This document shows positions 15,790 to 57,781 of a stretch of DNA of 64,000 nucleotides, piece after piece. The DNA comes from Escherichia phage PC3, in the sequence record ON184125; one strand, written 5' to 3'. Every line of letters begins with the position of its first letter. The first letter of the stretch is position 1. Below the pieces are notes generated by a model. It searched no databases. It was not told the origin of the DNA and saw only the letters and a list, made by a program, of their open reading frames with translations. The translations under genes and the position numbers were made by a program.

Positions 15790-16038
15790 ATGCGTGGTGT
15801 AAAAGTACAAGGGCATGCATCGATGATGAGAAGCAGCTCTTGCCCTGGGGCTATCATCTGCACAGACAATGCTGCCGGTTTGGCAGCACTGAACGCTCGT
15901 CGAAATCAGGAAGAAAAGGACAAAACTATTGCAGCGCAGGCAGCGCAAATAGATCAACTGACAGCGATGGTACAACTCATGGCGGAACACCTCGGGATTG
16001 AACTCCCGTCAGGAGGCCAAGATGGCAACCCAAACTGA
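15790..16038 (+). CDS. Hypothetical protein (82 aa)
   Basis: ORF with gagga SD; overlaps next gene by 17 nt. Confidence 0.35.
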   Translation: MRGVKVQGHASMMRSSSCPGAIICTDNAAGLAALNARRNQEEKDKTIAAQAAQIDQLTAMVQLMAEHLGIELPSGGQDGNPN

Positions 16039-16360
16039 CACTGTGATCGATGTGAAAGCGATCCTCACCGGGGTGCTGACGGCGACGATAGTCTCTGTTG
16101 GCTCGGTTGTTTGGATGATGGGTAAATTTGAGAATCGCCTTGATGTGGTTGAGCGTGACTCCAACAAGGTCGACCTAATCCTCACCAAGGTGAACGATAT
16201 GAATGAGAAGATTGCTGTGTTAAACACAGACGTCAACTACGTCAAGCAGAACGTTGCTGAGTTGAAACTCAATAGCAACAGTCTATCCGACGACGTTCGC
16301 ACTTTACGTATCACCGTCGCTGATATCCAGAGCAACAAGGGGAATGGCAATGGCCGTTAA
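16022..16360 (+). CDS. Hypothetical membrane-anchored coiled-coil protein (112 aa)
   Basis: AGGAGG SD 5 nt upstream; hydrophobic segment ILTGVLTATIVSVGSVVWMM followed by heptad-like region. Confidence 0.45.
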   Translation: MATQTDTVIDVKAILTGVLTATIVSVGSVVWMMGKFENRLDVVERDSNKVDLILTKVNDMNEKIAVLNTDVNYVKQNVAELKLNSNSLSDDVRTLRITVADIQSNKGNGNGR

Positions 16361-23646: not shown

Positions 23647-23675
23647 CTTTACTTCTTCAATAACTCACGTATAAT
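23647..23675 (+). promoter_or_regulatory. Sigma70-like promoter (CTTTAC-17-TATAAT)
   Basis: Upstream of the 23724 gene; -10 context TATAATTCTA recurs at 31852 and 38245. Confidence 0.4.
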
Positions 23676-37057: not shown

Positions 37058-37537
37058 TCAGTGCTCCCGCGCCGGAAGAACTCCCACTGGTTCGATGCCA
37101 TCCAACAGCAGGGAGTTCACACCCACATTACTCAGTCTGATCAAGATCGTTCCCCCTGGGTTAACTTCAAAGATACTCATCCCATTTCCAACCGCGTCGT
37201 TGTTAACGAACACGCCCTGAGTTGCGATTCGTACTGGTTTATCTGTGTCATTCATGATCTTGAACGTCACGATTATATCCGATGTTGTACCCAGTCGTCC
37301 AACCATGCGTTGCTTCAGCTTGGCGTAGAATGATGGATTAAAGGTGATAATGATGCTGTTGTTCTGAGAGTAATAAATACTTGCTGAAATGTATGGTATC
37401 TTCCCTTCATCGCCATGCCGCAGGAGAGGAATTGTGGTCTTCCAGTATGGCTTGAGGGTGCTCATGTTCTCATCAAAGCAACCTAAAGGTACGAGTTTCT
37501 GGAAGGGCTGGAACTCTTGCACGATGATGTCCAGCAT
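37058..37537 (-). CDS. Hypothetical protein (minus strand, ~160 aa)
   Basis: Protein-like C-terminal part of the 37058..37873 minus ORF; N-terminal extension looks like shadow of the + gene; start uncertain. Confidence 0.35.
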   Translation of the reverse strand: MLDIIVQEFQPFQKLVPLGCFDENMSTLKPYWKTTIPLLRHGDEGKIPYISASIYYSQNNSIIITFNPSFYAKLKQRMVGRLGTTSDIIVTFKIMNDTDKPVRIATQGVFVNNDAVGNGMSIFEVNPGGTILIRLSNVGVNSLLLDGIEPVGVLPAREH

Positions 37538-37736
37538 ACCCTTGTCACAAGTAGGAACGCTGGCCGACAACGTCACAGGTACAGTGCGCACTTCTGGGTT
37601 CCAGAATTCGGAAACAGAAATTATTGGCGTGACAAAGATGCGACAGCTCGTAAACAAGAGCATCGAGCATGCCAACAACAATCTACTGATCCCGCGCATC
37701 AGGGTCACAAAATATCTCCACAGCAAAGGTGCTATT

Positions 37737-51269: not shown

Positions 51270-51446
51270 ATGACCGACAACAAATTAAAACGTGCCGGAC
51301 TTGATTGTCTTGACAAATCATTCCGCCCCAGTGATGTTCTGGTCGCCCAAATGGAAAACAACCGGGATTTCATTGAAACTATGCTGGAGAACGCCGACGC
51401 GAACTCCAAACACTCCAAAGCCCAAAAAGGTCAAAACGATGATTGA
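51270..51446 (+). CDS. Small hypothetical protein (58 aa), translationally coupled to the vWA gene
   Basis: ATG downstream of the sigma70-like promoter; stop overlaps the next start (ATGATTGA). Confidence 0.35.
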   Translation: MTDNKLKRAGLDCLDKSFRPSDVLVAQMENNRDFIETMLENADANSKHSKAQKGQNDD

Positions 51447-53640
51447 ATCATTAACATTTAAGAATGCGGTTGCGACCGTCGCGCCGTCTAACCATGTAAT
51501 CGTTGTGGATATCTCCGGTTCCATGTATCGTTCACTTCCAGAAGTCCGTAAGCATCTGAAGGAGAACATGCCTTCCCTGGTGAAACCCGAAGATACTGTG
51601 AGCATCCTTTACTTTTCATCTCGCGGTGATTTCGGAACGGTATTTGCCGGGCGTCAGATCGGTGCCGCATCTGACCTGAGCGAGCTGAACAAACTGATCG
51701 ATCGCTTCCTGCAACCGTCCGGATGTACTGGCTTTGTTGAGCCGTTGAAACTGGCAATGGACACTGCTCGTGGCCTGAAGAAGCCTGGCTATGTCAACAA
51801 CCTGGCGTTCATGACTGACGGGTATGACAACTGCTGGCGTACCAACGAAATTCTACTGGTTGCTGAGACCCTGCCATTTGCTTTCGATAACATTACATTT
51901 ATCGAATATGGCTGGTACTGTAACCGCGAACTGCTGGCGCAGATGGCCGAACGCTCTGGTGCTACTCACGTGTTTGCCGAAGGTCAGACCGAATACCAGA
52001 CCGAGCTGGAAAACGTGCTGAAGTCATCAGTGCCGAAGGTGGTTGTTGATGTGCCTCTGCTATACACCCACGCCATCTATGTTGAAAACGGCGTAGCAAC
52101 TGTTCTGGCGGTACAGCCGGATGAAGACCATCCTATCGGCCACGTGAGCATCCCTGAGAGCGTCGCCAAGCTGTGGGTTGTAAACCCTAACATGATCGAC
52201 CAGCTTGATGCGCTGGCGGATATCCAGGCGGCATACGTGCTGGCGTTCTACGGCGTACACATTATGGACGCGGACCTGGTGTGGGCTGCACTGAAGAAAA
52301 CGGGTGACGTTCGCTTCATCAAACAGTACAGCAACTGCTTCACCAAGCAGGACTACTCCAACATCAAAGTTGATCTGACCCAGGCCATCGTTGATGACCA
52401 GCTGCGCGGCGTTGACGGTATTGACTATGACCTGGTTCCGGCTGAAGATGCGACGACCGTCGTTGACGTGCTGACGTATCTGGCTGAAGCTGGCGTGTGT
52501 GTTGCTACCAAACATCCTATGTTCTCCTACAAGAGCATCGGGCGCGGTACTGTGCAGAAAACCGACGACACCGAAGACAAGCTGGCAGAACAGATCGCGA
52601 ATGCTCAGTCCAAAGAAGAGCGTAAAGCCCTGGCTCTCAAGCTGGCAGAGCACGAAGAGTGGAACCCGACGTTCGAACCTACCAACGACCTGGGTGTTGT
52701 GCCAATCAGCGATTTGGTCTATAACTCCGAGCGCCCGAACATCAGTGTGCGTACAATTCAACACGGTACTGTGGCTGTGCCTGAATTCGCACAGAAGAAG
52801 TTTGGCCTGCCTGAAGAACTGGATACTTTCCAGTGGCGCAACTACACCATCGTCAAAGACGGTATCATTAACGTGAAGACTCTGCCGTTCAAGGCTGATA
52901 TCGAAGTTGTACAGAAGCTGATCGAAATGGGTGTCCACGTGTTTGGTGGTCCGGAAGTGTTTGTCCTGAACCTGGAAAGCGTACCGCTGGTCAACCGCGC
53001 CATGGTCAAAAACATCAGTGCTGCTCAGTTCTTTGCGGATAATGTCCGTCTGGAAGCCCTGAAAGGCAAGCAGAAGGTGCTGAAGTTCTATCGAGACGCC
53101 CTGGTTGGTAAGGGTAACGCCAAAGGCCTGGCAGTACAGTACGGCGCTGAGGCGGCCGAGTTCCTGTCCTCCTACGGTATCCGCGATTACGGCTTCTCAC
53201 CGAAGACTGAGACCAAAGAGTCTACCGACTTCTACATGAGCCGTGAGCTGAACGTTAAGATCGCCGGGGCGTCTTCACTACCGAGCATCGCGGCAGTACA
53301 GAAGAAGATTGCCGAGAACAAGAAACTCAATGCTGGTGACTTGTTCATCGCTAATGCGCTGAAGGAGTACGAAGCATTCGTGAAGTCTCCTATGATCACT
53401 GCCGTGCCTGAATCCTTACAGAAATATCTGATCGAAAACTGGATCGACGCTGCTGCCAAGGCGGCCATCACCGAAGTCCGCGCCCTGAACAAGACACTGT
53501 CTAAAGTGGTTTATGGTATCGTTGCTGGTCATGGCTGGTTCACCGACCTCGACCTGGAAGAGTCCACCATGGAAGTTGAAGTGGATGGCGTGAAGTACAA
53601 GGTCACTGCCGAACTGACAGAGAAAGAAATCAAAATCTAA
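51439..53640 (+). CDS. von Willebrand factor A (vWA) domain protein (733 aa)
   Basis: MIDAS motif VVVDISGSM near the N-terminus; long C-terminal extension of unknown function. Confidence 0.65.
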   Translation: MIESLTFKNAVATVAPSNHVIVVDISGSMYRSLPEVRKHLKENMPSLVKPEDTVSILYFSSRGDFGTVFAGRQIGAASDLSELNKLIDRFLQPSGCTGFVEPLKLAMDTARGLKKPGYVNNLAFMTDGYDNCWRTNEILLVAETLPFAFDNITFIEYGWYCNRELLAQMAERSGATHVFAEGQTEYQTELENVLKSSVPKVVVDVPLLYTHAIYVENGVATVLAVQPDEDHPIGHVSIPESVAKLWVVNPNMIDQLDALADIQAAYVLAFYGVHIMDADLVWAALKKTGDVRFIKQYSNCFTKQDYSNIKVDLTQAIVDDQLRGVDGIDYDLVPAEDATTVVDVLTYLAEAGVCVATKHPMFSYKSIGRGTVQKTDDTEDKLAEQIANAQSKEERKALALKLAEHEEWNPTFEPTNDLGVVPISDLVYNSERPNISVRTIQHGTVAVPEFAQKKFGLPEELDTFQWRNYTIVKDGIINVKTLPFKADIEVVQKLIEMGVHVFGGPEVFVLNLESVPLVNRAMVKNISAAQFFADNVRLEALKGKQKVLKFYRDALVGKGNAKGLAVQYGAEAAEFLSSYGIRDYGFSPKTETKESTDFYMSRELNVKIAGASSLPSIAAVQKKIAENKKLNAGDLFIANALKEYEAFVKSPMITAVPESLQKYLIENWIDAAAKAAITEVRALNKTLSKVVYGIVAGHGWFTDLDLEESTMEVEVDGVKYKVTAELTEKEIKI

Positions 53641-53681: not shown

Positions 53682-54005
53682 ATGAGCAGTAAACCAACAT
53701 ATGTTGAAGTCATGCGTCATCTGGCTCAGTACGCCACTGACAATCTGAATATGGATCTGTGGCGTGACGATGACAAGCGCAAATTGCTGGACGACGTGGC
53801 ATCTCAGAACGAGGACGCCCTGGACAAGCTGGCTGGTCTCCGTACCAAGAAAGACCTCGGCGGTGACGAACTGGATGCCATCGAAATCGTAATGGAACTA
53901 GAAGAAGAGTTTCAGGTCGAAATCGACGACGGGTGGCTAGGTAGTAAAGGCGATGACCCGACCATGGGTGAACTCGCTGAACTCGTGGTTGCCCTGCGCA
54001 AATAA
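53682..54005 (+). CDS. Acyl-carrier-protein-like protein, conserved Ser replaced by Glu
   Basis: KDLGGDELDAIEIVMELEEEFQVEI aligns with the ACP core [24 protein letters not shown]; Glu occupies the phosphopantetheine site. Confidence 0.6.
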   Translation: MSSKPTYVEVMRHLAQYATDNLNMDLWRDDDKRKLLDDVASQNEDALDKLAGLRTKKDLGGDELDAIEIVMELEEEFQVEIDDGWLGSKGDDPTMGELAELVVALRK

Positions 54006-54046: not shown

Positions 54047-54076
54047 GTTTACTTCCTCTAAGGAATGTCCTATTAT
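54047..54076 (+). promoter_or_regulatory. Sigma70-like promoter (GTTTAC-18-TATTAT)
   Basis: Upstream of the 54128 gene, after a terminator. Confidence 0.4.
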
Positions 54077-54127: not shown

Positions 54128-54367
54128 ATGAAGAACAAAATGGTCGAAACTTCAGTAGAGATTGATCGCAATTGGGGATTGCTCCGCGCTAAAGGGTTCC
54201 GTCGTGTGTATGCGACCAAAGAAGTCTACGCACAGCGCCGTGACGTTATCATCAGCAAGAAAGGCAAAGAGTGGGTTGCTGAAGAAGTTGATGTCGAGAC
54301 AGGCATCGTAGGAAAGGTAAAGGCCAAGGCCGTGATCCTCTTCGCTCTTCTGAAGCACATCAGTTAA
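54128..54367 (+). CDS. Hypothetical protein (79 aa)
   Basis: ORF downstream of a GTTTAC-18-TATTAT promoter-like element. Confidence 0.4.
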   Translation: MKNKMVETSVEIDRNWGLLRAKGFRRVYATKEVYAQRRDVIISKKGKEWVAEEVDVETGIVGKVKAKAVILFALLKHIS

Positions 54368-54426
54368 TTCTATAACTTTGGGCGGGGTATGATTACCCCG
54401 TCTATTTGAAACCAAGAGACTATATC

Positions 54427-54801
54427 ATGAAAAAGTTAATCCTCGCTGTTGCCCTGCTGGGCGCTTCCTTTGCTGCTGTTTCCGCCCCTCCTGTCATCAC
54501 CGGAGTGTCTACCAACGGTGTTTATGCTTTCAAGGCGTATGGCCAAGACCTCGTTCTGTATAAGAACGGGAAGATGATTGAGCGCTGCGTATCAGACGAC
54601 GTGAATCGTGGGATCGACAATCAGGGTAGCCCATACGTCCTGGACATCTATTCCTGCTCCAACGGGACGAAGTCCTTTGGCGTCAAGACCTTTGGCAACG
54701 TCGCCGACGGTGGCTGGGGCTTCATGTTCGAAACCCGCAACCACCACCCGGTCAAGACCATGCAAGAAGAGTTCTTGATCTCTGTCGGGGGTACGTTATG
54801 A
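54427..54801 (+). CDS. Predicted exported protein (signal peptide)
   Basis: MKKLILAVALLGASFAAVSA leader. Confidence 0.5.
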   Translation: MKKLILAVALLGASFAAVSAPPVITGVSTNGVYAFKAYGQDLVLYKNGKMIERCVSDDVNRGIDNQGSPYVLDIYSCSNGTKSFGVKTFGNVADGGWGFMFETRNHHPVKTMQEEFLISVGGTL

Positions 54802-55085
54802 CACCATCAGAGAGAAGTTCTATCAAGGAGATGATCAGAGACAAGGCGTGTGTTGGTCATACTCAGTCAGAGAACATCTTGCGCCTGATGGTAATAAAGA
54901 ACGATATCGACAACAGCCGATTCCAAACAGCGTTGTATGGCATGCTGGAGTTTATATCGCGGTCATCTGATCTTGGCACGGTCCGATATCTTGACGATCT
55001 TACCAAGCTGCTGAACACGGGCGGGGAAACTTTCGACACCGCTCGTATCCTGATTGACGGTAGACCTGAAGAAGACGAGGTATAA
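54798..55085 (+). CDS. Hypothetical protein (95 aa)
   Basis: ORF overlapping neighbours by 4 nt. Confidence 0.4.
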   Translation: MTPSERSSIKEMIRDKACVGHTQSENILRLMVIKNDIDNSRFQTALYGMLEFISRSSDLGTVRYLDDLTKLLNTGGETFDTARILIDGRPEEDEV

Positions 55086-55245
55086 TTTGGATAAAGAATT
55101 GGTTTGGGAAATTGTGAAGGGTGTCCTAGTAATAATCGCGGTGGTTTTCATCTTGGGTGGGAACTTCTTCTATTGGTTATTCCGATCCGACCAGAAACGT
55201 CGCGAACGCAAGGAGAAAGAGAGAAAGGATCGATGGATGCGCTAA
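55054..55245 (+). CDS. Small membrane protein (start uncertain)
   Basis: Hydrophobic helix VLVIIAVVFILGG then basic tail; start may be downstream. Confidence 0.3.
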   Translation: MTVDLKKTRYNLDKELVWEIVKGVLVIIAVVFILGGNFFYWLFRSDQKRRERKEKERKDRWMR

Positions 55246-55277
55246 CTAAGGGATAACCCTATATCCCGAGGTGTGTC

Positions 55278-55727
55278 ATGTTCCTTACATCCTTTATTGA
55301 CTGGTTGAACATCATTAACGGCCTGAGGATCCCTGTTGGGAACCTCGGGCTTTCGCGTTCTTCTATGCCACAAATCGATGCCGACAAACAAGAAGATTTT
55401 CACAAATATCTTGAAGACAACGGCGTGTCCATAGATGCTGTACAAGTGCCCATCAAAATGCTTCGTCTCACCCAGAACGAAATCAACAAGATGAAGGTCT
55501 GGAAGATCATGAAGAACATCAGAAATAAGAAACCTATGGGTCGAGTTTGGGTGTCTTCTGACAATTACGTTGTTGACGGTTCTCACCGATTTGTCGCTGC
55601 GTTGAACATGGACGGCAAACAGCGCATGAAGGTCTACAAAGTTGATTTGCCAGCGATGGAATTTGTTAAACTCGCTAAACAGTTTCAGGGTGTGCGATAC
55701 AGAACGGTCAGCGATACTCGTTTCTGA
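55278..55727 (+). CDS. ParB/sulfiredoxin-like nuclease-domain protein
   Basis: NYVVDGSHRFVAALNMDG resembles the ParB N-terminal DGHHR core. Confidence 0.5.
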   Translation: MFLTSFIDWLNIINGLRIPVGNLGLSRSSMPQIDADKQEDFHKYLEDNGVSIDAVQVPIKMLRLTQNEINKMKVWKIMKNIRNKKPMGRVWVSSDNYVVDGSHRFVAALNMDGKQRMKVYKVDLPAMEFVKLAKQFQGVRYRTVSDTRF

Positions 55728-55806
55728 ATACGATAGTTTATTGAATCCCTTTACTCATCATGGTGAGCCGCCTATCATTTCATCCAATGAAATAAGGAGA
55801 ATCACC

Positions 55807-56493
55807 ATGAAACGTTTAATCCTCGGGGTTGTGCTGGCTGGTCTGGCATTACCCGCCGCTACCAAGCTGAATTCCACAGGTGATAAACTGTGGTCTGACC
55901 TTTCCTATTGTGCTGGGTTCTCCCAGGCGGTTGCCATCGACAAGTCTGGTTCCATAGAGAACTTCGCTGAACTCTGGAACACAGGCAACGTCTCCACTGC
56001 TGTCATCAATGCCGGAATTGAGTTCAACCGTTACAAACAGGGAGCCTATAACCTCAAAGGCTACCTCAATGACGACGAATTTAACCGTGGAGGCATGGAG
56101 GCTGGCGATTTGATCATGACTGGGCGTATGGGCACCCAAGGCCGAATGACCGTAAGACAGTGCCGTTCGCTCCCTTCTCCGGCATTACAGAAGGGTGTGC
56201 AGGTTGGTCGCCGCCACCTGAACCTTATCAACGATGGCAACCAGTGCATCAAAGTATTCGAATACAGCGCTACGCAGACCTCTGATCGCGTCCTGAAGAA
56301 GGAATGGCGCACCCGCGCTCTTGGTCTCAGAGCCTGGCTGGTTGAGAACGATTATTACTTTGAAGACAGGGTTCAGAACGGTCTGAAAGACCTGGCCACG
56401 AATCTGAGCGTGAACCTTGATGATCCCCGCATGTCGCGCGAACTCCAGCAGACTCGTGTTGACTGCGACAATATGATGAAGGAGAACGAGTGA
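55807..56493 (+). CDS. Predicted exported protein (228 aa)
   Basis: MKRLILGVVLAGLALPAA leader; aaggaga SD. Confidence 0.5.
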   Translation: MKRLILGVVLAGLALPAATKLNSTGDKLWSDLSYCAGFSQAVAIDKSGSIENFAELWNTGNVSTAVINAGIEFNRYKQGAYNLKGYLNDDEFNRGGMEAGDLIMTGRMGTQGRMTVRQCRSLPSPALQKGVQVGRRHLNLINDGNQCIKVFEYSATQTSDRVLKKEWRTRALGLRAWLVENDYYFEDRVQNGLKDLATNLSVNLDDPRMSRELQQTRVDCDNMMKENE

Positions 56494-56819
56494 TGAAATG
56501 TAAAATCCTGCTCTTGTTGGTACTGATAGCCGGGTGTGTAAATGCCGCGCCACCGTCTAAACTGAACACATGTGTGGCATGGATGGAGACGTATCAGCAG
56601 TTCCACCCAGATGACAAAGACACATCTATCCTCCTGTCCGACTTCGAGGGGGAGCTGAAGCGCCTTGATCTGTTCAGTGTTGATCAGATAGAGAATGCGC
56701 TGGATCTTCCCATGATGCTGACTGCGGCTGATAACAGTCCACAAACGAAGAAAGACCTGATGTATTGCCGGGGAATTGCCCAGGACTTTGTCGGATTTCA
56801 AAATAAAGTTTCGGGTTAA
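56490..56819 (+). CDS. Predicted lipoprotein (lipobox LIAGC)
   Basis: MMKCKILLLLVLIAGCVNA leader; start overlaps the previous stop. Confidence 0.5.
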   Translation: MMKCKILLLLVLIAGCVNAAPPSKLNTCVAWMETYQQFHPDDKDTSILLSDFEGELKRLDLFSVDQIENALDLPMMLTAADNSPQTKKDLMYCRGIAQDFVGFQNKVSG

Positions 56820-56858: not shown

Positions 56859-57725
56859 ATGCTCCTGACCAAAACAATCGCTGCGGCGATTATCGAAAAG
56901 AATAAGGCTTTTGCCCCCAACGCAGCCAAAGTTATGTTGGTACACGAAGACGCTCGCGTGATCTTCGCCGAGAAGTTCGAGATGGGCGCGAAGTTCTGGT
57001 ATGCCGACAACTTACGTGAGAGCAAACTTCAGGGTATCATCCACAAACTGACTCTGGTCGCCAAGCGTAATGACCAGGGTGACTGGGTCGGCGTTTCTGA
57101 CTTCAGTACGAAGATCACCCCAAAGGCTCCGCTTTCTCGTCAAGAGCGCATTCTGGAAGCCCAGGAAAAGCTGCGTGCGGCTCGGAGTACCCCAAAGGCG
57201 AAACCAGATGCAAGCCCTGTCATCAAGCCAGCGGTTGTTCCTAAGTCCAAATACCTCCCGCCCGTGAGTCAAAAGGCTGTGGAGCAATTGGTCGAGAAGC
57301 GCAAGGGTGACGTTGTGATGAAGTCTGACTCTTCAGTGGAGTCGTTCAAGCCGGATCCAGCAGAAGTACAGGCGCTAGCAGAAAAGGTAAAGAATTCACA
57401 ATTCATTTCCCTGCGTGAACTTGAACCGCCTACTCGCCGTCGTGTCGCCAACGAGCTGTTTGTGTCGTTCAGGTCGGATGGCAAGATCGTCCTGTGCAAA
57501 GCCCTGCGCGATGCAATCCCTTGGACAACTCTGAACATGATGGTCACTCGCGACTTCAAGCGTTTTGGTATCATGCAAGGCAAGGACTACAACGTGAACC
57601 AGAGTGGGACTTATGTCAATCGCGCCATGTGCTCTAAGCTGTCATTCCCTGAAGATACCGGAACGATCCGTGTCGTTCTGAATTGGGATGACAATCTGAA
57701 CATGTATGTTGGCGATTTCCAATAA
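56859..57725 (+). CDS. Hypothetical protein (288 aa)
   Basis: ORF with gaaggaa SD. Confidence 0.45.
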   Translation: MLLTKTIAAAIIEKNKAFAPNAAKVMLVHEDARVIFAEKFEMGAKFWYADNLRESKLQGIIHKLTLVAKRNDQGDWVGVSDFSTKITPKAPLSRQERILEAQEKLRAARSTPKAKPDASPVIKPAVVPKSKYLPPVSQKAVEQLVEKRKGDVVMKSDSSVESFKPDPAEVQALAEKVKNSQFISLRELEPPTRRRVANELFVSFRSDGKIVLCKALRDAIPWTTLNMMVTRDFKRFGIMQGKDYNVNQSGTYVNRAMCSKLSFPEDTGTIRVVLNWDDNLNMYVGDFQ

Positions 57726-57781
57726 TCAATAACCTCGGGCGGCTTATCATAAAGCTGCCCTTTCATTTGAGTGACTATATC

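Follow-up and report, generated by a model that had tools for sequence, protein, structure and literature searches.

A core gene pair for predicted periplasmic proteins, labeled as a spanin, and its neighbors in a Vi1-like phage

Do the genes for predicted exported proteins that lie within 2.4 kb of one another in a Vi1-like phage (Ackermannviridae) form one envelope system, and does the spanin label that two of them bear describe what they do? Spanins are proteins that rupture the outer membrane when the cell is lysed. The presence of this label on gp59 and gp60 in public records had been missed by a preliminary description of the DNA, which treated the genes as one cluster with a candidate role in superinfection exclusion or cell-envelope modification. 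Here, the stretch was analyzed within a 64-kb window (the whole of the DNA studied, 64,000 nucleotides), where its five genes, all on the + strand, match deposited CDSs of Escherichia phage PH4 (ON184126.1) with the same coordinates. The genes of the stretch fall into three unrelated kinds: the gp59-gp60 pair, gp55 with gp57, and gp58. Taken jointly, the best reading, to which we give an even chance, is that gp59-gp60 is an orphan periplasmic pair and not a canonical spanin, that gp55 and gp57 occupy an accessory slot, and that gp58 is a ParB/Srx-like virion protein.

Exported proteins without a conserved cluster

The genes in question are as follows.

gp55, 54427..54801, + strand: 124 aa, accessory, predicted secreted, with a Sec signal peptide; phrog_5474, function not assigned
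gp57, 55087..55245, + strand: 52 aa, TTG start, predicted accessory single-pass membrane protein; phrog_14464 'membrane protein'
gp58, 55278..55727, + strand: 149 aa, pI 9.9, ParB/Srx-like DGSHR motif, without signal peptide; phrog_2859 (E=9e-45)
gp59, 55807..56493, + strand: 228 aa, core, predicted secreted, signal peptide with conserved AxA; labeled 'i-spanin' in relatives
gp60, 56493..56819 (or from a GTG at 56490), + strand: 108 aa, core, predicted secreted; labeled 'o-spanin' or 'Rz-like spanin' in relatives

That three of these proteins are predicted to be exported held up. The leaders expected at 54427 and 55807 were recovered as Sec-type by a hydrophobicity heuristic in gp55 and gp59, and the LIAGC lipobox assigned to 56490 is the canonical LIAG/C of gp60 (slashes mark predicted cleavage sites), with its start at 56493 or the GTG at 56490. 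Scanning all ORFs of the window, only gp55, gp59, and gp60 combined an ATG start with a strong signal-like N terminus, and gp60 was the sole convincing lipobox ORF. gp59 and gp60 count as one unit, and by a rough estimate (p about 0.1-0.2) it is not unlikely that gp55 lies nearby by chance. Scans of the region with Pfam, NCBIfam, PADLOC, and Rfam gave nothing significant except the ACP domain of gp53.

What did not stand was the picture of a conserved cluster in a simply nonstructural setting. gp58, gp59, and gp60 belong to the core, but relatives carry other genes in place of the accessory gp55 and gp57. Homologs of gp58 and of the vWA protein encoded upstream are virion proteins confirmed by mass spectrometry in phage LIMEstone1. 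Homologs of the three exported proteins were missing from the 39 LIMEstone1 virion proteins found by mass spectrometry, a nondetection and not proof of absence.

To separate signal peptides from anchors, we summed Hessa-type hydrophobicity values across 19 residues, a heuristic benchmarked on lambda and T4 proteins. gp55, gp59, and gp60 (+3.8, +4.9, and +3.6 kcal/mol) grouped with known signal peptides (lambda Rz1 +2.9, T4 PseT.2 +2.5, Bor +3.6) and not with membrane anchors (lambda Rz -2.5, T4 PseT.3 -1.2), alongside which gp57 scored -1.0. The features recognized by Sec SPase I, a basic n-region, an h-region of 7-15 residues, and small residues at -3/-1, were found by the same kind of heuristic in gp55, gp59, and most gp60 homologs. 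In the LIMEstone1 GenBank record, the homologs of gp59 and gp60 carry SignalP-type signal-peptide notes (methods in PMC3296691) and the gp55 homolog carries none.

The gp59-gp60 pair

The N terminus of gp59, MKRLILGVVLAGLALPAAT/K, has a hydrophobic core of 12 residues followed by Pro-Ala-x-Ala. Homologs summed to +5.3 to +6.5 over 19 residues and kept the AxA with a variable middle residue (AAA, ATA, ASA, AHA) down to 32% identity; those at 31-36% identity have textbook signal peptides (AWS/E, ASA/A, ANA/G). PH4 itself has Thr at -1 of the consensus site (AAT/K), a poorer cleavage site than that of its relatives. The single, retained N-terminal transmembrane anchor (N-in/C-out) that marks an i-spanin is not predicted for gp59.

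Mature gp59 has a pI of 6.6 and four conserved cysteines (C35, C119, C147, C220). A homolog of 126 aa corresponds to the N-terminal part only, which suggests that gp59 is built from two parts; in each, a conserved pair of cysteines might be joined by a disulfide. The AF2 model was unreliable (pLDDT 38.9, helices only in residues 140-227) because the alignment was too shallow and its members too similar; the globular, two-part nature of gp59 therefore rests on its composition, the cysteine pattern, and the naturally truncated homolog. The record of the LIMEstone1 homolog notes a COILS coiled coil. Few polar residues are invariant, a paucity that suggests binding rather than catalysis. gp59 had no matches in Pfam, NCBIfam, or PDB, and a PDB profile search returned chance-level matches only. 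Its profile HMM found 11 matches among 1.84 billion representative proteins; wherever contigs were examined, the full-length or clearly related ones all came from Ackermannviridae-like contigs, and no annotated family was reached. The split gp59 of Salmonella phage 38 was rejected as proof of dispensability, its lesions being two 1-nt homopolymer deletions that are most likely sequencing errors.

gp60 begins MKCKILLLLVLIAG/CVNAAPP, which fits the lipobox [LVI][ASTVI][GAS]C with V at +2. PH4 thus shows the o-spanin signature, an invariant lipobox Cys not followed by Asp at +2, but the family as a whole does not. The canonical lipobox occurs in 6 of 36 family cluster representatives (7 by the permissive PROSITE rule), the others having AxA signal peptides. 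The lipobox Cys is missing from about 80% of gp60 clusters, including those of Vi01-type, CBA120-type, and Klebsiella phages. Among 21 related viral loci from IMG/VR, a lipobox-type Cys motif occurs in only 3, the remainder ending AxA/xP, and distant homologs have VLA/T and ARA/D in its place. Several separate clusters do place a cysteine close to the cleavage site. A Gly/Ser-to-Cys change confined to the PH4/Marshall/Maynard sub-clade would have created the lipobox, so that gp60 of PH4 is probably lipidated and held by its lipid on the periplasmic side of the outer membrane; a soluble protein is predicted for most relatives. As lipidation is confined to one sub-clade, it would not be essential to the function of the family. 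In lambda, the lipid anchor of the o-spanin is indispensable.

Mature gp60 is small and acidic (pI 4.4), with invariant cysteines C27 and C92, and AF2 modeled it as a compact helical bundle (pLDDT 83.5 overall, above 90 for residues 21-100). The model had no fold relative outside its own family and resembled no solved structure, neither sequence nor fold linked gp60 to T4 Spackle or proteins of the RI type, and a PDB profile search gave chance-level matches only.

gp59 and gp60 are adjacent, as i- and o-spanin genes are, whether embedded, overlapped, or separated, and their stop and start codons overlap at TGATG (56491-56495). Adjacency with an overlap of 1-4 nt is retained in contigs L004 and L005 at 32-36% identity. 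Among about 282 Ackermannviridae-type records, gp59 was present in 270 and gp60 in 281, and the pair is listed as core in the core-gene table of PMC10892097. The following features bear on its transcription.

T4-early-type promoter-like site, 54047..54076, + strand: GTTTAC-N18-TATTAT, upstream of gp54 (promoter scan)
T4-early-type promoter-like site, 55749..55778, + strand: CTTTAC-N18-TATCAT, upstream of gp59 (promoter scan)
gp61 and terminator, 56859..57760, + strand: 288 aa, phrog_3828, without signal peptide; terminator at 57737-57760 (terminator scan)

The motif TTTAC-N17-19-TATNAT occurs three times in 64 kb against 0.35 expected, and the 54047 site recurs unchanged in LIMEstone1 under the annotation 'putative early promoter'. 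Among closer relatives, conservation is higher between gp58 and gp59 than at the 3' end of gp58; in the distant contig L004, the intergenic region is not conserved. From these motifs, the promoter of the pair looks early rather than late, and the terminator probably closes a gp59-gp60-gp61 transcription unit. The T4 late-promoter motif TATAAATA was dropped: with 2 matches against 1.1 expected, it is not enriched and is therefore useless for timing. A literature search for Kuttervirus transcriptomes or experiments on these genes found nothing.

Exclusion, lysis, or timing

Judged on its sequence features, the gp59-gp60 pair is not a canonical Rz/Rz1-type spanin, despite the public label, because the gp59 leader scores as cleavable and the gp60 lipobox is absent in most relatives. 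The best reading is an orphan soluble periplasmic pair. Both proteins would be exported via Sec and released into the periplasm, where they may act together as a complex. From early in infection onward, this complex would bind some component of the envelope, and its most probable effect would be to exclude or blunt a superinfecting phage or to protect the envelope. Such an exclusion or envelope-protecting function, or the envelope modification proposed in the preliminary description, would be a plausible candidate role.

A noncanonical part in lysis, with a pair, soluble or in this sub-clade lipid-tethered, that accumulates during infection and destabilizes the outer membrane or its wall links after endolysin has acted, so replacing spanins, seems unlikely to us, though it is the alternative with most to recommend it. 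Lysis rather than exclusion, a typically dispensable function, is favored by the core status of the pair in a family where no other system for outer-membrane disruption is recognized. The lipobox scan of the window gave no other convincing candidate, and the cysteine near the cleavage site in several gp60 clusters would fit action at the outer membrane. Kongari et al., moreover, found relatives without a canonical spanin and explicitly permit other topologies. Against this, neither protein has a cationic amphipathic segment like that of the phiKT disruptin (gp60 pI 4.4, gp59 pI 6.6), the few invariant polar residues suggest binding and not catalysis, and the promoter looks early. T4 spanin genes are also located among early genes. 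We know of no mechanism by which soluble proteins of the gp59/gp60 type disrupt the outer membrane. We hold it somewhat less probable again that the Ackermannviridae pair constitutes a new system of outer-membrane disruption or envelope remodeling that does not bridge both membranes, with the lipid anchor an optional addition of one sub-clade.

That gp59-gp60 is, after all, a canonical two-component spanin, bridging the periplasm and fusing both membranes at the end of lysis, we regard as very improbable. The layout in PH4, a protein with a hydrophobic N terminus followed by a lipobox protein, is what spanin searches seek, and the label recurs across resources (i-spanin/o-spanin in KF669653, 'Rz-like spanin' for phrog_3843, 'I-spanin' in UniRef). 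T4 spanin genes are likewise unlinked to those for holin and endolysin. However, the gp59 N terminus, with its conserved AxA, is 6-7 kcal/mol less favorable for insertion than the anchors of Rz and PseT.3, most gp60 clusters lack the lipobox Cys, and gp60 is modeled as a compact bundle. Kongari et al. did score phage Marshall as having a two-component spanin; in the same study, the Marshall pair is a length outlier among all spanins, with 300 periplasmic residues, and close relatives of Marshall (Maynard, Vi01, SFP10, CBA120, PhaxI, ECML-4, and AG3) were scored spanin-less. The literature searched shows the Marshall label to come from annotation and offers no experiment in its support.

Slightly less credible still is a regulator of lysis timing like the T4 antiholin RI, in which periplasmic proteins sense superinfection and keep the holin inactive. 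The proteins are predicted to be periplasmic and early expressed, and rIIA and rIIB occur in the family, but neither in sequence nor in fold was a resemblance to RI or any solved structure found, and no T-type holin was identified in this analysis. To our knowledge, lysis inhibition has not been described for these phages.

The choice matters beyond PH4. About 280 sequenced Vi1-like phages carry the pair, many of them candidates for therapy or food biocontrol, and a rising share of records bear 'i-spanin', 'o-spanin', or 'Rz-like spanin', names carried over from a single genome annotated by students. The conservation of the signal-peptide features and the lack of the lipobox indicate that the label is wrong; in that case, the means by which the family breaks the outer membrane would still have to be found, and the pair would be an uncharacterized periplasmic system of a major phage family.

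Neighboring genes and known systems

A variable slot holds the accessory genes gp55 and gp57, which encode a predicted secreted and a predicted membrane protein, respectively. gp55 begins MKKLILAVALLGASFA/AVSAPP and would mature to about 104 aa, Gly-rich and with 2 Cys. Of about 282 records of related phages, 104 (37%) contain it. It has a 23-aa in-frame deletion in Marshall and shows no homology to the extra secreted protein that adjoins the pair in contig L005. The interleaved small membrane protein that had been proposed is gp57, a one-pass protein with a single hydrophobic segment of 21 residues. From its acidic N terminus and very basic C-terminal tail, it is predicted to lie N-out/C-in; matches to holins and YajC were sub-threshold only, and LIMEstone1 has a nonmembrane ORF in its position. 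The surrounding genes are small and cytoplasmic.

gp54, 54128..54367, + strand: 79 aa, small, basic, cytoplasmic; phrog_804 (E=5e-29)
gp56, 54798..55085, + strand: 95 aa, acidic, cytoplasmic; phrog_4458 (E=3e-36)

gp54 is conserved in the distant contig L004 and is followed by a terminator-like hairpin (54381-54402); its LIMEstone1 homolog also has an annotated terminator. gp56 has homologs in L004 and in LIMEstone1 (ORF103).

For gp58, the VVDGSHRF motif behind the proposed ParB/Srx-like gene is present, while the ParB assignment is tentative. The protein matched phrog_1033 'ParB-like partition protein' weakly (E=5e-4, residues 66-132), and UniRef names it 'ParB/Sulfiredoxin domain-containing'. 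DGSHR, to be compared with the conserved Gly-x-His/Arg-Arg loop of the ParB/Srx fold, is invariant in 25 homologs and is preceded by an LTQNE element. No ParB-type Pfam family was significant, single family members matching ddrB-ParB (E=0.07) and ParBc_2 (E=0.08), and a PDB profile search returned no ParB and chance-level matches only. The gp58 domain also lies inside 'DarB-like antirestriction' proteins of ~4,000 residues in BcepIL02, PEp14, and Gervaise-type phages; Pfam made no ParBc call on the Gervaise giant-protein segment or on a Stenotrophomonas homolog of gp58. In LIMEstone1, the homolog ORF101 (17.3 kDa) is a 'confirmed structural protein', identified by mass spectrometry from 5 peptides at 35.6% coverage. 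gp58 would thus be packaged in the virion, kin to a domain of giant DarB-like ejected proteins and unrelated to the exported proteins, making it a lead to early host takeover more than to the biology of the envelope. That the whole 2.4-kb stretch, the ParB-like gene included, works as one envelope or exclusion module is the least credible reading of all: the genes are close and on one strand, and two of the window's three early-type promoter motifs lie inside the block, but gp55 is found in only 37% of relatives, gp57 is replaced elsewhere, gp58 is a virion protein without an export signal, and denV and other genes are inserted between these genes in some relatives.

Set beside known systems, the gp59-gp60 pair shares with spanins (lambda Rz/Rz1, T4 PseT.3/PseT.2 with its separated architecture) adjacent, overlapping, envelope-directed genes in a phage of a Gram-negative host, a downstream protein with a lipobox in PH4, and, as in T4, a location unlinked to holin and endolysin genes. 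It differs in the cleavable-type leader of gp59, where spanins have a membrane anchor of 19-20 residues, in a composition that is Gly/aromatic-rich with four conserved Cys, as against the more charged one of the spanin coiled coils (gp59, 8.6% Gly, 8% aromatic, and 26% charged; Rz and PseT.3, 1-2% Gly and 34% charged), in the lipobox missing from most gp60 homologs, and in a gp60 modeled as a folded helical bundle rather than a short Pro-rich tail. T4 Spackle (Sp), Imm, and the antiholin RI offer a functional analogy only, in that gp59 and gp60 likewise are small, predicted Sec-exported periplasmic proteins, helical and cysteine-containing, of a large T4-related myovirus and are probably expressed from early promoters. 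The receptor-blocking lipoproteins T5 Llp and Cor resemble gp60 of PH4, a lytic-phage protein predicted to be a small lipoprotein of the outer membrane and to be produced ahead of lysis; unlike them, gp60 would be lipidated in one sub-clade, shows no sequence or structural similarity to them, and has no known receptor. Finally, gp58 differs from the virion ParB/Srx domains of polyvalent, DarB-like proteins in standing alone at 149 residues and in lacking significant similarity to Pfam ParBc or solved ParB structures; it resembles them in its DGSHR and LTQNE elements, its weak PHROG match, and a homolog packaged in the virion.

Gene content and transcription signals

The region was 100% identical to the same coordinates of Escherichia phage PH4 (ON184126.1), which belongs to the Vi1-like myoviruses (family Ackermannviridae). 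At the DNA level, the region matched 243 records of related phages.

Genes and transcription signals of the region
54047-54076 (+), promoter motif GTTTAC-N18-TATTAT, identical in phage LIMEstone1
54128-54367 (+), gp54
54427-54801 (+), gp55
54798-55085 (+), gp56
55087-55245 (+), gp57
55278-55727 (+), gp58
55749-55778 (+), promoter motif CTTTAC-N18-TATCAT, in the gp58-gp59 spacer
55807-56493 (+), gp59
56493-56819 (+), gp60
56859-57725 (+), gp61
57737-57760, terminator 3' of gp61

The T4-early-like pattern TTTAC-N17-19-TATNAT occurred three times in 64 kb against 0.35 expected, a count reached by 1 of 100 shuffles. Two of these sites are the motifs listed here, the first of which was annotated in LIMEstone1 by its authors as a putative early promoter; the third lies at 23648-23675 (+). 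Among closer relatives the gp58-gp59 spacer was better conserved than the coding end of gp58, and a hairpin terminator was located 3' of the acyl-carrier-protein (ACP) gene. Together, promoter motifs and terminators suggest two putative transcription units of early type, one spanning gp54-gp58 and the other gp59-gp61. No transcriptome of Ackermannviridae was found in the literature.

Homologs of gp59 and gp60 were present in 270 and 281 phage records, respectively, compared with 282 for an unrelated core gene, and gp55 in only 104. Erwinia- and Serratia-phage lineages encode a 126-residue gp59 comprising the N-terminal part only. The gp55 homolog of phage Marshall (L001 3328-3636) has an in-frame 23-residue deletion bordered by a VKT tripeptide repeat, which would fit a dispensable gp55, and LIMEstone1 carries an unrelated non-membrane ORF in the gp57 slot with denV inserted upstream. 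In two distant metagenomic contigs (L004 and L005; 32-36% identity), the gp58-gp59-gp60 order and a 1-4 nt gp59/gp60 overlap were retained among different flanking genes. The stretch is thus a mosaic of core and accessory genes. Although the three predicted exported proteins of the preliminary description are all present, their description as a cluster carries little statistical weight because gp59 and gp60 count as a single unit, to which the accessory gene gp55 does not belong.

Two 1-nt homopolymer deletions (A5 to A4, T3 to T2) split the annotated gp59 homolog of Salmonella phage 38 (L035 401-1068) into two ORFs; sequencing error is the most likely cause, and a pseudogene was set aside. 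In L004 (7028-8028; Ackermannviridae-like, ENA ERZ940655), the genes directly 3' of the gp59-gp60 homologs encode a 69-aa protein that has two hydrophobic segments and a Band_7/SPFH protein of 263 aa whose lipobox, LLLTG↓C, is a true one; Kuttervirus genomes encode an SPFH lipoprotein at a different place.

Export signals and a probable ParB-like virion protein

N-termini were scored by summing values of the Hessa biological hydrophobicity scale over 19 residues. The benchmark set, taken from annotated records, consisted of Rz, Rz1, and Bor of lambda together with PseT.3 and PseT.2 of T4. The i-spanin anchors (Rz, PseT.3) scored -2.5 and -1.2 kcal/mol and the lipoprotein signal peptides +2.5 to +3.6 kcal/mol. 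The signal peptides proposed for gp55 and gp59 held up, with sums of +3.8 and +4.9 kcal/mol, a basic n-region, a 12-15-residue hydrophobic core, and small residues toward the core end. gp60 (+3.6 kcal/mol) begins MKCKILLLLVLIAG↓C, confirming a canonical lipobox, and was the only ORF in the 64-kb window with a convincing one. The Lol-sorting rule predicts lipoprotein destination from the +2 residue; gp60 is a predicted outer-membrane lipoprotein because this residue is Val. The small membrane protein is gp57, with one hydrophobic segment of ~21 residues (-1.0 kcal/mol) and a Lys/Arg-rich tail. Among ATG-started ORFs across the window, only gp55, gp59, and gp60 had a strong signal-like N-terminus. 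Given the benchmark scores and this whole-window scan, the exported-protein observation is real, and it is largely ordinary.

Other N-termini were also recorded. A 213-aa ORF at 37058-37699 (-) has a lipobox-like LLFTS↓C that may be spurious. In Marshall (L027 11435-11779, -), another gene annotated 'putative conserved lipoprotein' encodes a Cys-rich product of 114 aa (…FSTTA↓C); it overlaps the gene for a non-membrane 260-aa protein, and the two do not form a spanin-type pair. The gp60 homolog of Escherichia phage A221 (P0047) was deposited as 78 aa without signal peptide or lipobox because it was annotated from internal Met31, and is an example of start-codon errors masking export signals.

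The VVDGSHRF motif noted for the ParB/Srx-like gp58 was present, and DGSHR within it was invariant across 25 homologs together with LRLTQNE and MPQI motifs. Profile support for a ParB-type domain was weak: phrog_1033 matched at E=5e-4, ParBc_2 and ddrB-ParB of Pfam matched single family members below threshold, and PDB gave no match. UniRef names it 'ParB/Sulfiredoxin domain-containing'. Domains of this type are embedded in giant proteins, namely those annotated 'DarB-like antirestriction' in BcepIL02 and PEp14 and one of 4,511 residues in Ralstonia phage Gervaise (L033 1501-1824, within a 13.5-kb CDS). A Pfam scan of 1,108 residues of the latter found nothing, so the family is effectively undescribed in Pfam.

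The LIMEstone1 homolog of gp58 (ORF101 in GenBank, 17.3 kDa) is a 'confirmed structural protein'; Table 2 of PMC3296691 includes an unknown structural protein of 17.31 kDa, with five unique peptides and a coverage of 35.6%. For homologs, other records use 'structural protein' or 'virion-associated protein'. Virion location, which the preliminary description took to count against its proposal, therefore applies to the gp58 homolog but not to gp55, gp59, and gp60, whose homologs are absent from the LIMEstone1 virion list. Lacking an export signal, gp58 is best read as a packaged ParB/Srx-like protein, probably ejected, and functionally unrelated to the exported proteins. Upstream, a 733-aa vWA-domain protein gene (51439-53640, +) adjoins the ACP homolog (53682-54005, +; PP-binding, E=1e-5). 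The vWA homolog is an MS-confirmed LIMEstone1 virion protein (six peptides), and both had single spectra in Sajous1 virions.

The spanin annotation of gp59 and gp60

Homologs of gp59 and gp60 are named i-spanin and o-spanin in the Marshall record (KF669653), 'I-spanin' in UniRef (gp59), and 'Rz-like spanin' in RefSeq and PHROGs (gp60; phrog_3843). The Marshall announcement came from an undergraduate annotation course and contains no lysis experiment. In a spanin survey (Kongari et al. 2018, PMC6139136), Marshall is a two-component singleton whose periplasmic length, 300 residues, exceeds that of every other spanin listed. The survey scored Maynard, Vi01, SFP10, SJ2, SJ3, CBA120, PhaxI, ECML-4, and AG3 as 'spanin-less', yet all nine carry gp59/gp60 genes as Marshall does. 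This leaves the label both unverified and internally inconsistent.

The adjacency of i- and o-spanin genes was found in gp59/gp60; an i-spanin membrane anchor was not. Compared with the anchors of lambda Rz and T4 PseT.3, the gp59 N-terminus is 6-7 kcal/mol less favorable for membrane insertion. In 20 homologs the gp59 segment ends L-P-A-x-A followed by Lys/Gly, with both alanines constant and x being A, T, S, or H, a pattern that reads as the signature of a signal-peptidase I site. A search of 1.84 billion representative proteins yielded, as the only distant homologs, sequences whose signal peptides are classical yet unrelated (...STSAWS↓E, ...SFHASA↓A, ...VSTANA↓G). For the 95%-identical gp59 homolog of LIMEstone1, the record carries a signal-peptide note, and its methods cite SignalP and TMHMM (PMC3296691).

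PH4, Marshall, Maynard, and phages very close to them had the o-spanin lipobox, but it was not a property of the gp60 family. Six of 36 full-length cluster representatives had a canonical lipobox (one more by the permissive PROSITE rule), the remainder ending VYA↓AP, VLA↓AP, VQA↓AP, ALA↓VP, and similar; two distant homologs likewise lacked it. A lipobox-type Cys motif occurred in only 3 of 21 related IMG/VR loci, all of them from the clade that shares at least 95% identity with PH4. Records of moki and LPST94 annotate 73%-identical gp60 homologs as 'putative lipoprotein' or 'o-spanin'; at this level of identity, the Cys was absent from every cluster and locus examined. These data support the view that one sub-clade gained the predicted lipid anchor when a single Gly/Ser-to-Cys change arose shortly before the old cleavage site (LIAG-C-VNA↓AP). 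gp59/gp60 should not be classed as a canonical spanin.

Elsewhere, a 112-aa protein (16022-16360, +) has a 22-residue N-terminal hydrophobic segment followed by ~75 charged, Pro-free, heptad-like residues, a classic i-spanin or holin-like layout. Its gene (phrog_3961) is part of the family core, with 282 phage records, and is closely followed by the neck-protein gene; none of its neighbors was found to encode a lipoprotein.

Nature and role of the pair

Neither protein matched Pfam, NCBIfam, PADLOC, or PDB sequences. The AF2 model of gp60 is a compact helix bundle (helices 23-37, 42-57, 63-69, 75-78, and 83-106; pLDDT above 90 for residues 21-100), with invariant cysteines in the first and last helices. 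Foldseek returned no PDB match with E below 2 and BFVD only the protein's own family (Erwinia phage phiEa2809); with no specific structural relative, T4 Spackle-like or RI-like folds are therefore unsupported. gp59 is rich in Gly and aromatics and has four conserved cysteines, and the truncated natural variant suggests two parts with one cysteine pair each. Its AF2 model was unreliable; a COILS signal is reported for the LIMEstone1 homolog. gp60 evolves faster than gp59 (59-99% versus 76-95% identity). The data support a family-core pair with overlapping stop/start codons and predicted Sec export, probably disulfide-stabilized in the periplasm.

We propose that gp59 and gp60 may form a complex that would bind an envelope component from early infection. 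Our leading guess for the role, a tentative one, is exclusion of superinfecting phages or envelope protection. The main alternative, non-canonical outer-membrane disruption, is rather doubtful, although the core status of the pair and the lack of a recognized spanin or disruptin in the family add weight to it; there is a minority chance that the pair represents a new way to breach the outer membrane. A canonical spanin is very unlikely. The rest of the probability falls to functions outside these three.

The chief use of this analysis is a negative one: sequence conservation within the family itself does not support the spanin annotation that is spreading through Ackermannviridae records. gp59/gp60 remains an orphan periplasmic system of modest novelty, to be placed in the broad group of periplasmic or envelope proteins that phages encode.
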